64,000 nucleotides of DNA from Candidatus Falkowbacteria bacterium (GTDB lineage Bacteria; Patescibacteriota; Patescibacteriia; CAIXNZ01). Under the pieces are notes generated by a model. That model ran no database searches. It saw only the letters and a program-made list of their open reading frames with translations, and had not been told where the DNA came from. The position numbers and the translations under genes were made by a program. Shown one piece after another: positions 43,469-58,912 of this stretch. Each line of letters begins with the position of its first letter. Positions within the stretch are counted from its first letter, which is position 1. The stretch spans positions 21,913 through 85,912 of the forward strand of contig JAFGMD010000021.1 in assembly GCA_016927685.1 (NCBI GenBank). The letters are read 5' to 3'.

Positions 43469-43512
43469 AATAAAAAGCCCCACATTTTATGTGAGGCTGT
43501 AAATTCGCCGGT

Positions 43513-43783
43513 GAGGAGGTTGCTTGGCATCCAGATTACTCTGGACGAGCATAGAGTTCTCTTGGTGCTTGCCGAAGTGGACCCGAGAATCTATCCTCGC
43601 TTTGATATCCGAGTACTTTTCTATCGCAAGCCCTGACAAATTTCCCTGGACATCTCTGGCGGCATCGAAGTCCAGACACATACCGTGCATTTCTACGTTC
43701 GTCAACGTAGTTGAGCGTAGCCATTTGGCCTTGTAAAACCCCTGCACTAATACATGCCCAGAAAGCCACCCTCTCTCCTCCTC
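43513..43783 (-). ncRNA. Candidate ~270-nt structured ncRNA
   Basis: TTGACA-17-TAATGT promoter, GAGGAGG/CCTCCTC closing stem, multiple internal helices, terminator near 43472-43498. Confidence 0.55.
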
Positions 43784-43864
43784 GATCTGTAATAAACATT
43801 AACAAACGAATAAAATAATGTCAAATAAAAAGCCCCACATTGCTGCAGGGCTGAATTTACAAAT

Positions 43865-44168
43865 GATTGGAAGGGTTAGAACAGCATTGCTGAACAACAA
43901 TGCCGACGGCGACCAAATGGGTCTGCTCCTAACCTGACGTTTTTATAATGGCTCGGTCAGCGCCCTTTGTCCATCCAACCATTTACCTGATGGCAAGTCG
44001 TGGGAGAGGAAAGGCTTTGGAAAGAAAAGGCAGTTATTGCCCTTGCGTATTTCAACGCAAATTTCCTTCTTTTCTGCCCAGATGCTCTTGCCAGCTTACT
44101 AGGCAGTATTCCCACTTCAGGATTTGAATAATGATGATCGCTACCAAGGACAAAGCCCATGGGAGTGA
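43865..44168 (-). ncRNA. Candidate ~300-nt structured ncRNA
   Basis: TTGACA-17-TATTTT promoter, ctttgtcc/ggacaaag long-range stem, several hairpins, terminator near 43828-43852, no SD-led ORF. Confidence 0.55.
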
Positions 44169-44207
44169 TGCTAATAAAATATCAAATGGATCAGTTTTTG
44201 TCAACAT

Positions 44208-54178: not shown

Positions 54179-55579
54179 TTAATTATTTGTCGCAATTGTT
54201 GCGGTTGGAATTAATAAGTCCAAATTTTCACCCTGCGGATGTAAGCTCAAGACTTTATCAGTCACGTCAAATATATCTGTCCAGCTATAACCTAAGGATA
54301 TAAAAGTATTTTCATTAGCAACCCAGCGACGCTGACCATTAGAAATTACATATACCTTGGGATCGCTAGGACTTTTTATTAAAATACCGTCACGAATTTT
54401 TAAGCCGTTAGCTGCTGTAACATATTTATCAAGTTCTTCGGTAGTGACTTTAATAGTGCTGTATTTTTTATTGTAATTAATATTTAAAACATCTTTTGAC
54501 CAAATAGGATATTTTATGCCATCTTCAACATAAAATACACCCCCCGTTTTTGAATCCTGAAGCAGAGCGCCCTGTGGATATAAGCTAGTAAGTGTTATTT
54601 TTCTACCCTCCAAATAATAGCCAAGCTCTTCATCAGTAACATCTATGATCTCATCTGGATTATAACCTATAGCGCGAAAAACTTCATCTGATTCAATTTC
54701 CTTTTTTTCATTGCCGACAATTAAATATATTTTATTGGCAGGGGAGCGAAGTAATGAAAAATTAGCATACTTAATGGGATAGCCCTCTTCATATCTTAAT
54801 AAATCATTTTTAGAAATTTCAATAATTTTGGCATTGGCATAACGGCTGGTTAGGGCTAAATTAGACCAGAATAATCTTCGTTTGCCATTGGCTATTAAAT
54901 ATATTTTAGAATCGCCTGTTTGTTTAACGATTGTACCATCAGGGAAAATTTTAGCAAACCATCGATTCCAAATATTCCAAAAATTAAAATTACCATGCAG
55001 ATGTGGCGTATAATTATATAAATTTGCTGTTGATTGATTATAAGGAACTATTGTCTGATTATCAACTATACTGGATTTGCCTGGTAGAAAATTAAAGTCA
55101 GAAGCATGATCATAATAATATCTTATTCTCCAAGTACCGCGGTCAACTTGCGTGCCAAAACCCTTAAACATGGCAACTTGGGGGTCATCAATAGAACAAG
55201 AATCGCAAACTGCATAACCCATAGCCCAATCAATATTTTTTTGCGATGGAGTCGGATTTGTAATCAAGCTCTGTTCCTTTTGAAGTGTTGCTAAAATCCA
55301 TTTGGGATTTATTTTATATGTCTGGGCAGCATTAAAAATTATTTCAGCCGCTAATTTTTGAACACCATAATTATCAGGAGTTATAAGGCTTTTTAAAACT
55401 CCATTTTGGTTATTTAAAAATTCTGCAATAGCAGATAAATTCATGGACTGAAAATCAGTCAAATCTCCATCAGAAATAATATCATTTGGATCAAATTCAA
55501 AAGCCAAAAGCTGGCCAAATGGCGCTAAAATAAAACTTATAACAACAATAAAAATAATAATTTTATGATAAATTTTCAT
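54179..55579 (-). CDS. Secreted cell-wall-hydrolase-like protein with CPR surface repeats
   Basis: Signal peptide; INP...L..LQKEQ.L, LY.YTPH; repeated G.L.K...VY.I..G.KR units. Confidence 0.8.
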   Translation of the reverse strand: MKIYHKIIIFIVVISFILAPFGQLLAFEFDPNDIISDGDLTDFQSMNLSAIAEFLNNQNGVLKSLITPDNYGVQKLAAEIIFNAAQTYKINPKWILATLQKEQSLITNPTPSQKNIDWAMGYAVCDSCSIDDPQVAMFKGFGTQVDRGTWRIRYYYDHASDFNFLPGKSSIVDNQTIVPYNQSTANLYNYTPHLHGNFNFWNIWNRWFAKIFPDGTIVKQTGDSKIYLIANGKRRLFWSNLALTSRYANAKIIEISKNDLLRYEEGYPIKYANFSLLRSPANKIYLIVGNEKKEIESDEVFRAIGYNPDEIIDVTDEELGYYLEGRKITLTSLYPQGALLQDSKTGGVFYVEDGIKYPIWSKDVLNINYNKKYSTIKVTTEELDKYVTAANGLKIRDGILIKSPSDPKVYVISNGQRRWVANENTFISLGYSWTDIFDVTDKVLSLHPQGENLDLLIPTATIATNN

Positions 55580-55749
55580 ATATTATATTTTATCATAAAT
55601 TCATGCTTCTTTCAATAAATAAAAAGATCGCCTGCATAATTACGGACCTAACCCTCTAACCCCGGATTCAGCGAAAGCTGATACCGGGGTCTTTTTCTAT
55701 CCAAAAAATATTTTGACATATTCTTTTACTATTGCTAATATATTTTTAC

Positions 55750-56063
55750 GAGGGAATATGTCTGTGAAAAATAGCTCGGTTTGCTAGCGACAAAGAGCGA
55801 AAAGGCCATCCAATTGAAATACGCATTAACACTATGTGGCAGAAATGTCAGGTGGATGCGTTCCTCATGAAAAAATTGTGGGGTGGTGCCATACCCTGCG
55901 TACTGCACTGAGCGAGGTGCGCGGGAGCAAACCTGCCCATGATGCCGAAACCCCCATGTTTCTCGTTTTGCGGGACCGCATGCCAACGGGAACCTAGGGC
56001 GGCTGTCGCCACGTGCCTAGTTATGGGACCGGAGAAAAAAGCTCTGTTTTTACAGACTACCTC
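55750..56063 (+). ncRNA. Candidate ~315-nt structured ncRNA
   Basis: TTGACA-17-TAATAT promoter, terminal stem 55760-55776/56040-56057, internal helices, strong terminator 56071-56110, no sense ORF of note. Confidence 0.65.
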
Positions 56064-56146
56064 AAGTCGTGCCCCGGCGAGTTATGTACAAACTTGCCGG
56101 GGCCTTTTTTATTGACAAAAAGAGTTATATTTGTTAAGCTGCCAAT

Positions 56147-56243
56147 AATAACAGTGAGCTGACCTGGCATATAGGATGCTATGGGAACGGCTCGCCCCTC
56201 CAAGCCCCGCTTTCACTGATCATGATTGCGGGGCATTTTTTAT
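56147..56243 (+). ncRNA. Candidate ~95-nt small RNA
   Basis: TTGACA-17-TAAGCT, hairpin 56154-56195, terminator gccccgc/gcggggc plus T-run. Confidence 0.5.
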
Positions 56244-56290
56244 TTAAAAATTAAAAAAGAAACGGATTTACCGCTTCTTTTTTGTTTTAT

Positions 56291-58912
56291 TTATTTAAAA
56301 ACTACTTTATCTTTTATAACATCCACTCTAACCTTTTGCCCTTCTTTTATCTTGCCTTCAATAATTTGCAAGGCTAAATCATCAAGAATTTGATTTTGAA
56401 TCACGCGCTTGAGCGGGCGAGCGCCAAATTGGGGATCAAAACCCTTATTAGCCAAATATTCTTTAAGCGCTTCTGTAAAATCAACTTTAATTTTTTTATC
56501 CAATAATCTTTTTCTGACAATTTCCAACTGCAATTCAATAATTTTTTCGATTTCTTTTTTTGCCAGAGGATGAAAAATAATTATTTCATCCAAACGATTA
56601 ATAAATTCCGGCTTGAAATGCGACTTTAAAGCTTCATTAACTCGTTCTTTCATTTTCTCCTCATCAACTTTTTCATTTGTTCTGACTGACTTATCTTCAA
56701 AACCAAGAGTAACTTCTTTTAAAAGCTGATTGCCTAAATTAGAAGTCATAATTATAATAGCATTTTTAAAATTTACTATTCGGCCCTTGGCATCAGTCAA
56801 ACGGCCATCATCAAGTAACTGCAACAGAATATTAAAAACCTCTGGATGAGCTTTTTCAATTTCATCAAATAAAACCACAGAATATGGACGTCTACGAATC
56901 TGTTCAGTTAATTGTCCGCCTTCATCATAGCCAATATAACCGGGAGGGGAGCCAATAAACTTGGAAATAGAATGTTTCTCCATATATTCTGACATATCCA
57001 CGCGAATCATGGCATCTTCATCACTAAACATAAATTCTGCCAAGGCCTTGGCTAATTCAGTTTTGCCTACGCCGGTTGGGCCCAAGAAGATAAATGAGCC
57101 AATTGGCTTATTTTCCTCGCCAACGCCTGCGCGTGAGCGTCTAATAGCGTTTGCCACGGCTGAAATGGCCTCTTCCTGGCCAATTACGCGCTTTTTTAAC
57201 TCATCTTCAGCGTGAGCAAGCTTAGCCATTTCTGATTGCAGCATTTTGGAAACAGGAATGCCTGTCCAGCGAGAAACAACTGCCGCTATATCTTCCTCAG
57301 TTACTTCTTCTTTTAATATTTTATTTTCTTTTTGAATGAGGGCTAATTTTTTTTCTAAAGACTTGATGTCTTTTTCCAAAGCCGGAATCGTGCCATAGCG
57401 AATTTCTGCAACTTTTTGCAATTCTGATTTTCTTTCCAAAATATCTGCTTCTTGTTTTAGAGAATCAATTTTCTTTTTAGCCTCGCGGATTTTTGTAATA
57501 ATTTCCTTTTCATTTTTCCAGTGTAATTCCAATTGGTTTGATTTTTCTTTCAAATCATTCAGTTCCTTATTTAGATTTTTCAAATTTTCTTTGGCCTCTT
57601 TTTCTGATTCATTTTTTAGCGCGGCTTTTTCGATTTCCAACTGTTTAATTTTTCTTTTCATTTTGTCCAAATCTTCGGGCATAGAATCAATTTCCATGCG
57701 CAAGGCCGATGTTGCTTCGTCAATCAAATCAACTGCCTTATCAGGCAAAAAACGATCGGTGATATAGCGCTGTGAAAATTCAGCTGCTGCAGTAATTGCT
57801 GAATCAGTAATTCTCACACCGTGATGAACTTCATATTTTTCTTTAATGCCACGCAAAATGGCAATCGTATCTTCAATTGACGGCTCTAAAACCATAACCG
57901 GTTGAAATCTGCGTTCTAGGGCCGGATCTTTTTCAATATGTTTTTGATATTCTTTCAGGGTTGTTGCGCCAATGGCATGCAATTTACCGCGAGCCAAAGC
58001 AGGCTTTAACATATTAGAAGCATCCATCGAGCCTTCGATAGCGCCGGCGCCCACTACAGTATGCAATTCATCTATAAATAAAATAATCTGGCCATTGGAA
58101 TTTTCTACTTCTTTTAAAACAGCTTTTAATCTATCTTCAAATTCACCACGAAATTTTGTACCTGCTATCAAAGATCCCAAATCCAAAGCAATCACTTCTT
58201 TATTTTTTAAAGTTTCCGGCACATCACCGGCTACAATTCTTTGTGCCAGGCCTTCGGCAATAGCAGTTTTGCCAACACCTGCTTCGCCGATTAAAACCGG
58301 GTTATTTTTTGTCCTGCGAGAAAGTACTTGCATAACACGTCTAATTTCAGAATCACGGCCAATAACGGGGTCTAATTTTTCCTGTCTGGCCATCTCAGTT
58401 AAATTTTGCGCGTATTTTTCTAAAACCTGAAATTTTGATTCTGGCTCGGGATCAGTTATTCTGGTTGAACCGCGTAATTGCGCTAAGAGCTTTAAAACCT
58501 CGTCATATTTAATTTCAAAACTTTCCAAAAGCGTTTTAACTTTGGATTTAGTATTGAGCATGGAGAGAAATAAATGCTCTGTAGAAATATATTCATCCTT
58601 GAGATCTTTAGCTTCTTTTTCACTTCCAGCTAAAATGCGCGCCAAATCTTCAGTTAAAAACATCTGGGTTAAATTAACTTCAACCTTGCTTTTAGGCATT
58701 GATTCAATGGCACGCGAAATTTCTTTTTTTAAATTTGCCGCTTCTACTTCCAGCTTTTTTATAATAGTCAAAACCAAGCTGTCTTCTTGAAGTAATAGAG
58801 CAGCGAGTAAATGCAGAGCATCAACTTGCTGATTATGATTGTCAACAGCTATTTCTTGCGCGTGGCGCAAAGCCTCCTGCGATTTTGTAGTAAATTTGTT
58901 TATATTAAACAT
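56291..58912 (-). CDS. clpB: Chaperone ClpB
   Basis: Two AAA+ domains ([16 protein letters not shown]), coiled-coil middle domain, GARPLKR. Confidence 0.97.

Follow-up and report, generated by a model that had tools for sequence, protein, structure and literature searches.

The 64,000-nt stretch of DNA analysed here (the window) belongs to a Candidatus Falkowbacteria genome (G000) of 946 kb that is 97% complete. Between the gene for a 466-aa protein and clpB it contains a plus-strand unit with its own promoter and terminator (Table 1). The original prediction, made from the sequence of the window, had described this unit as a possibly undescribed non-coding RNA (ncRNA) in a GC-rich island of AT-rich DNA, and had named an Rfam scan, covariation and metatranscriptome coverage as checks. 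The island has a G + C content of 52-57%, against about 30-35% around it. The promoter reported as consensus scores 10 of 12 and is joint-best among the 4 sites in 55500-56400, where shuffles give 2.7 sites, and the terminator reported as strong was found, with 9 GC pairs among its 13 bp. The unit is present in a single copy in G000; because it diverges from the 466-aa gene and converges on clpB, no gene follows it that it could regulate in the manner of a riboswitch. The 466-aa gene has matches in 102 of 121 class genomes, and its protein carries a repeated C-terminal module that is common to several other proteins per genome.

The first sense ORF has only 9 codons, as predicted, and is probably not functional; its counterpart in the congener G001, read by eye, starts with GTG and lacks a stop at the corresponding place. 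Where G000 has the orphan terminator, G001 has a full unit, and in X2, a DNA sequencing run, 407 other letters stand between positions 55599 and 55683, around the orphan-terminator site. The second, small unit has a similar unit in the congener G002; it is uncovered by the RNA contigs described below, which is no evidence against it.

Table 1. Features of the locus, in positions of the window.
Feature	Position	Strand	Description
466-aa gene	54179..55579	-	divergent flank; without Pfam family; own promoter 55615-55587
Orphan terminator	55659..55695	+	same family as the terminator of the RNA unit; remnant of an upstream cassette
Sigma70-type promoter	55713..55741	+	TTGACA-17-TAATAT, extended -10 TG
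RNA body	55749..56064	+	about 316 nt, the start being deduced from the -10 box
Terminal closing helix, 5' strand	55750..55770	+	pairs with 56047-56063; probability 0.96-0.99
9-codon ORF	55758..55787	+	behind GAGG; sequestered in the terminal helix
Conserved purine-rich core	55772..55819	+	TAGCTC, AGCGACA-N3/4-AGCGAAAAGGC, TGAAA
Hairpin A	55821..55861	+	bulged stem, GAAA cap
Hairpin B	55863..55883	+	weak, probability 0.30
Hairpin C	55895..55925	+	probability 0.92
Second domain	55936..56027	+	absent from G001; fold uncertain except 55960-55992
Intrinsic terminator	56071..56110	+	13 bp and U-run
Second, small RNA unit	56112..56240	+	TTGACA-17-TAAGCT, 52-nt hairpin, CCCTCC linker, terminator
clpB	56291..58912	-	convergent flank; gene end at 56291

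Fold, transcripts and strain variation

All complementary segments named in the original prediction are present in the sequence, and its two-domain fold was recovered in part. The terminal helix (pair probability 0.99 for GAGG/CCTC and 0.96 for GTCTGTGAAAA/TTTTTACAGAC), the ACGCAT/ATGCGT helix (0.97) and the TCTCG/CGGGA stem (0.79) stood, whereas the helices proposed to close the two domains were weak: GGTTTGCT/AGCAAACC reaches 0.39, with a 5' strand that is not complementary in G001, and CCCATGA/TTATGGG reaches 0.19. CCTCAT/GTGGGG is likewise weak (0.30), and TAGCT/AGCT and CTAGG/CCTAG lie outside the minimum free energy structure and outside the pairs above 0.15. Two of the best helices had been overlooked, namely TGGCA-GAAA-TGTCA (55837-50; 0.98) and 55895-904/55916-25 (0.92). 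The folding z-score without the terminator is -2.7 (range -2.7 to -3.3). Folding as strong was reached by 4 of 25 open-frame windows with matched GC and by 2 of 7 cassettes that encode proteins, all from G000, so that energy alone proves little; nor do the end-duplex scores settle the matter (10/150 shuffles). As folding energy is not exceptional here, the case for an ncRNA rests on covariation, indels and RNA contigs.

Four of the 12 listed sequencing runs were compared: X2 (DNA) and X3, X6 and X8 (RNA, from three studies); they were picked for containing this part of the window, and RNA libraries can contain DNA. Each of the three RNA runs yielded one long contig that lies entirely within the body, between 55759 and 56066 (X3, 55759-56057; X6, 55785-56066; X8, 55780-55991), and that differs from G000 at 11-18 positions (X3, 12; X6, 18; X8, 15). 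None of these contigs covers the promoter, the terminator or the 466-aa gene, and the X8 pieces on clpB are short and continue into unlike sequence. Two further RNA runs (X11, X12), from what may be the source study, contain next to none of the words of this part of the window. Coverage by RNA-library contigs is thus confined to the unit, in contigs that carry no strand, start or level. The unit is a genuine gene with a transcript of its own, whose RNA keeps its fold in close relatives and seems to be expressed by them.

The X2 sequence spans promoter to terminator (55683-56109) and keeps the promoter, with TTGACT. It differs from G000 at 24 of 427 positions (5.6%) in the RNA unit vs 35 of 202 (17%) in the adjacent gene (Fisher p 7e-6; the four SRA relatives are kin, so that the p-values overstate the significance). 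The statements that follow apply to the listed variants, which are a minimum set. Hairpin A contains two compensatory pairs, 55837/55850 (T-A to C-G) and 55838/55849 (G-C to A-T), in X2, X6 and X8. Pairing is also kept by the listed substitutions at 55766 (G55766A), 55848, 55899, 55902 and 55919, the last three being all those listed in hairpin C. A high-confidence pair is broken in one run each by 55823 and 55847, and a low-probability pair in two runs by 55890. Among pairs with a probability of at least 0.98, pairing is kept at 9 of 11 listed substituted positions; among the potentially pair-breaking positions, 5 of 7 keep the pair vs 1.6 expected (p about 0.008). No strain variant among those listed falls in 55796-55806 of the purine-rich core. 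Covariation is present among strains, and the substitution patterns show that both the sequence and its pairing are selected in close relatives.

A 1-nt deletion at 55834 in X6 and X8 and a 1-nt insertion after 55847 in X2 both break an 83-codon minus-strand frame, and the insertion also breaks a 53-codon plus-strand frame. A further frame, of 58 codons at 55939, lacks a Shine-Dalgarno (SD) sequence and continues across the terminator. The unit is non-coding and has no conserved ORF.

Homologues and known RNA families

A BLAST-type DNA search of 60 relatives returned no homologue; the one in G001 was reached through synteny. It is a diverged 238-nt unit that shares TAGCTC, AGCGACA-N-AGCGAAAAGGC and TGAAA and has a promoter with the same spacing upstream. 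The blocks of the purine-rich core are identical in G000 and G001, whereas the adjacent gene has a DNA identity of only 69%. In hairpin A, 27 of 30 cells are paired (90%) and 4 of 15 pairs are compensatory, in an alignment of two rows; sliding the alignment by 1-3 positions gave 0 double changes. The G001 homologue has a hairpin analogous to hairpin B in another register, and its ends are closed by a helix of different sequence. In G002, which is the closer congener in the flanking genes, no homologue of the RNA unit was found and the slot holds only the counterpart of the small unit, so that the homologue is present in one of two congeneric genomes. A model built from one hairpin of G000 and G001 found nothing further in 14 family genomes, 151 class genomes and the other slot units, which may be read as weak evidence of absence. 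A motif scan of genome contigs gave G001 and three chance matches; the match in G003, with 2 mismatches, and those in metagenomes (10 loci) and viral contigs (9 loci), in unrelated DNA, are also due to chance. Phage and plasmid collections contained no match to the unit.

The G001 sequence ACAGAAAA-GC...GC-GTGAAAA resembles CR II/CR III in the RNase P consensus of Rfam, a motif that we take to form T-loops. The RNA could accordingly be a relative of the RNase P specificity domain that binds the tRNA elbow, with two T-loops around a shrunken P12, and the strict pattern occurs in 3 of 2000 shuffles. However, the pattern was chosen post hoc, its CR II-like half is changed in G000, X2, X3 and X6, and HMMs from 7 family RNase P RNAs, taken from 7 of 13 RNase P loci, gave 0 matches on 18 units; we consider this relationship extremely unlikely.

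In the Rfam scan, the window contained no family at the gathering score except one tRNA, and at E<=10 the region 55400-56400 gave only sub-threshold matches of the terminator type. No catalogued family tested matches, in line with the prediction of an undescribed ncRNA. RNase P RNA, tmRNA and SRP RNA signatures are absent from the unit, as had been stated: it lacks CR I/CR V with P4 and a score over 100 bits (RF00010; the true gene is at G000:C20:62779-63168), tRNA-like ends and a tag ORF (RF00023; true gene on C2), and the helix 8 motif and Ffh/SRP54 partner (RF00169). SRP54 was detected in none of 14 family genomes, and neither a small SRP RNA nor 6S RNA was found in G000. The unit does not form the rod of about 180 nt with central bubble of 6S RNA and does not match its model (RF00013), which gave no match in 101 class genomes and finds 5 of 14 control genomes. 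Ms1 has no Rfam model match at gathering score or E<=10, and covariance models of ROOL, GOLLD, OLE, raiA and HEARO did not match. A group I/II intron was rejected for an intergenic unit with its own promoter and terminator and no model match; the Rfam group I model is insensitive. No CsrA was found in G000 for a CsrB/Rsm sponge RNA, and neither Ro60 (TROVE) nor a tRNA-like domain for a bacterial Y RNA. No conserved short hydrophobic ORF with overlapping antisense RNA, as in type I toxin-antitoxin loci, is present, and a single copy in G000 with no phage or plasmid match does not fit a MITE or IS remnant. The central 16S/23S motifs that rRNA mimicry would involve did not turn up in the G000 assembly, which holds two different 16S rRNA 3' ends (C7:5919 and C32:18394), only one with an intact anti-Shine-Dalgarno sequence; this could be a binning or assembly mixture.

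The genome encodes a KhpA/B-type KH protein, which could aid a small RNA that base-pairs in trans, and the conserved core is probably single-stranded. However, Hfq was not found in G000, the purine-rich core cannot mask SD sites, and an exact-match search gave no notable genomic complementarity, with longest matches elsewhere in G000 of 15-16 nt in AT-rich sequence. We regard such a role as quite improbable.

A multi-branched and apparently abundant RNA could also act as RNA only, in the manner of the structural or oligomer-forming ROOL, GOLLD and raiA RNAs. The GAAA loops, the A-rich junctions and a long-range GCGACA/TGTCGC interaction would suit this kind; the latter joins 55787-92 to 56004-09 at a pair probability of 0.5-0.6, and A55792G keeps the pairing. 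Such RNAs are sequence-variable with covarying stems, according to the available text of PMC12286853. Against this stand an interior and a length that vary freely, a G001 homologue without the second domain, and the lack of phage, plasmid or Rfam matches to those classes, so that this reading is rather unlikely.

The slot beside clpB and other structured units

Of the 12 family relatives in which the slot between clpB and the 466-aa gene could be read, 11 carry 1-3 GC-rich units there, each with its promoter, a closing helix and a terminator; G009 has no unit in the slot, and the contig of G006 ends too early to be read. Unit bodies range from 52 to 553 nt. For 15 of 16 units, no more than 26 of 500 shuffles attain the end-to-end duplex; the unit boundaries were drawn by eye once the folds were known. 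Many of the terminators, including three in the window, are of one GCCCC...GGGGC type. Across genera, the RNA bodies share no 6- or 7-mers beyond shuffles, except for A-runs, and their interiors are unalignable; a shared function is therefore not required. The relatives' units (12 loci) gave no Rfam family. The first and third units of G001 share a 13-mer, pointing to a tandem duplication. Outside the family, clpB lies within 1.5 kb at 14 of 27 loci. At 8 of these the gap does not exceed 336 nt, and the other 6 contain an ORF, in three cases behind a plus-strand promoter. The slot gains and loses RNA and ORF units; it is thus a place where autonomous cassettes can land safely, and those in it need not be orthologous.

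Individual slot RNAs have features of their own. The 553-nt unit (L041, G011) consists partly of internal duplications of hairpins. Three units from two genera (L033, L037 and L039, in G003, G010 and G007) have a 3' module GCGACCAG...CTGGTCGCC-ACG-AAATT before the terminator and differ in their 5' domains. Upstream of the RNAs of L040, L042 and L043 (G008, G012, G013), TTATCCACA or TTATCCCCA, a DnaA-box-like motif, precedes the -10 box, without TTGACA.

The turnover of the slot bears on the possibility that the RNA is a decaying or near-neutral cassette. Units consisting of promoter, SD sequence, ORF and terminator would enter the safe slot, lose their coding capacity and persist as stable folded transcripts without a specific target, with selection keeping only folding and harmlessness. 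The gain, loss and tandem duplication of units, the ORFs and the empty or short gaps at the clpB-proximal loci outside the family, the GAGG before a 9-codon ORF at the start of the RNA, and a folding z-score equalled by coding windows are all consistent with such an origin. It is nevertheless unlikely, since sequence is conserved too, as the X2 comparison shows, and unpaired-looking blocks are identical in G001.

Alternatively, the conserved AAAAGGC could pair with the base of the RNA's own terminator and its U-tail, tucking in the 3' end or allowing readthrough into the small unit and onward antisense to clpB, in the manner of a self-regulating leader or attenuator. Perfect complements of 7-9 nt to the own tail occur in G000, G001, G003, G010 and G004 (10-27 of 400 shuffles each), and in genus g2 the site differs in step with the tail. 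These are 5 of 18 units, chosen post hoc among kin that are not independent, and the tail of G011 was mis-picked; moreover, the pairing probability is under 0.03 in G000 and the RNA contigs end before the terminator. We judge a self-regulating role very unlikely.

The original prediction had combined the unit with two others, at 43.5 and 44 kb, into a repertoire of ncRNA cassettes, which holds for the latter more than for the former. The 44-kb unit (43862-44205, minus strand) also stands alone and is probably an ncRNA: G002 contains a homologue of it at 78% identity, with non-triplet gaps (4, 5, 16 and 2 nt) and compensatory changes in 6 of 91 predicted pairs. The 43.5-kb unit (43487-43826, minus strand) has a promoter, a closed helix, a terminator and a z-score of -3.2; however, it contains an 86-codon open frame and has no body-length homologue in 13 relatives. 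In G002, another unit (L073 1020-1340) directly follows the homologue of the 44-kb unit. A structured leader is repeated at three places in G000 (C29:36161, C39:18328, C39:20344), before small ORFs or in tandem; it consists of GGGGCGAGA...TCTCGCCCC and then a hairpin whose end is CAAGGAAAGGAG. Further GC-rich promoter-terminator units without long ORFs lie at C2:12796(-), C6:2692-3320(+), C21:9379(-), C21:19125(+) and C39:6031(-), three of them in tandem on C6, with folding z-scores of only -0.8 to -2.7.

Proposed function and significance

The RNA unit is a stand-alone accessory ncRNA gene. We tentatively favour an abundant, end-protected RNA that sequesters a protein, a mechanism inferred from exclusion. 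Transcription would start from a housekeeping promoter, and ends locked in a helix and a terminator would render the RNA stable and abundant. It would act in trans, with the conserved purine-rich junction and the GAAA-capped hairpin as protein-binding face, and the bound protein would be sequestered or scaffolded. The leading candidate partner, which may claim about half of the weight of this reading, is RNA polymerase, by the logic of 6S, Ms1 and CoRP; the next candidate is a defence or decoy target. Sequestration of RNA polymerase would suit an episymbiont that parks its transcription machinery between hosts. Against a polymerase-binding RNA speaks the lack of 6S size, rod shape and a match to the Ms1 model. 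Absence of a detected homologue in G002 and of any unit in the slot of G009 is unlike a core regulator.

Phage morons and other autonomous expression cassettes have their own promoter and terminator, are GC-shifted, lie between conserved genes and are gained and lost. The RNA unit shares promoter and terminator, GC shift, insertion between conserved genes and gain and loss with them, but its cargo is an RNA without conserved ORF and it has no phage context. In type I toxin mRNAs, the 5' and 3' ends engage in long-distance pairing. The unit resembles these in an SD-like GAGG and start codon locked in the terminal helix and in a putatively stable transcript; it differs in that its only ORF, of 9 codons, is non-hydrophobic and not kept in G001, and in having no antisense unit.

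Like 6S, Ms1 and CoRP, the unit encodes a stand-alone, apparently abundant, intergenic structured RNA, and this class, like the CoRP lineage, has no 6S match (PMC11077062, available text); unlike them, it has no sequence or model match, no rod of ~180 nt and a patchy distribution within the genus. The available text of PMC11077062 describes CoRP (516 nt) as binding RNA polymerase where 6S and Ms1 are missing and as having been missed by structure searches, and proposes one abundant polymerase-binding RNA per species, possibly unlike 6S or Ms1. The CoRP precedent and a class without 6S match are what place RNA polymerase first among the candidates. With ROOL, GOLLD, OLE (PMC12286853) and the raiA motif (PMC12968392), as far as the accessible parts of these sources describe them, the unit shares multiple domains, apparent abundance, an unclear function and covarying stems; it differs in a much narrower range, fast turnover of the interior, no phage/tRNA-island or oap/raiA context and no Rfam match. 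The literature searched, from which subscription papers were excluded, contained no description of such RNAs in Patescibacteria, and the sole mention of Patescibacteriota in the available text of a recent preprint (10.64898/2026.10.21.760802) is a repeat array. Orphan stand-alone structured RNAs are a known kind; new here are the RNA-library support from three studies, the strain-level covariation and a slot in which unrelated cassettes, of RNA or protein, replace one another.

By a bold and quite doubtful extension, regulation of the 6S type might be taken over in Patescibacteria by RNA cassettes that evolve fast and are interchangeable. A sponge for RNA polymerase or another core machine could then be any transcript that is abundant, has locked ends and carries a purine-rich junction; the slot RNAs would be unrelated, would arise from or yield orphan cassettes for proteins, and would be exchanged even within a genus.

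For now, the claim is restricted by the narrow range of the RNA and by a partner that is only a candidate. Although 6S, SRP, Hfq, CsrA and Ro60 went undetected in this 0.95-Mb genome, it still keeps a strongly promoted RNA of ~316 nt that is under selection, and its family exchanges unrelated RNAs in a single slot. Two questions thereby become testable: by what routes structured RNA genes newly arise and disappear, and whether every bacterium has an abundant polymerase-binding RNA, as proposed in the available text of PMC11077062.
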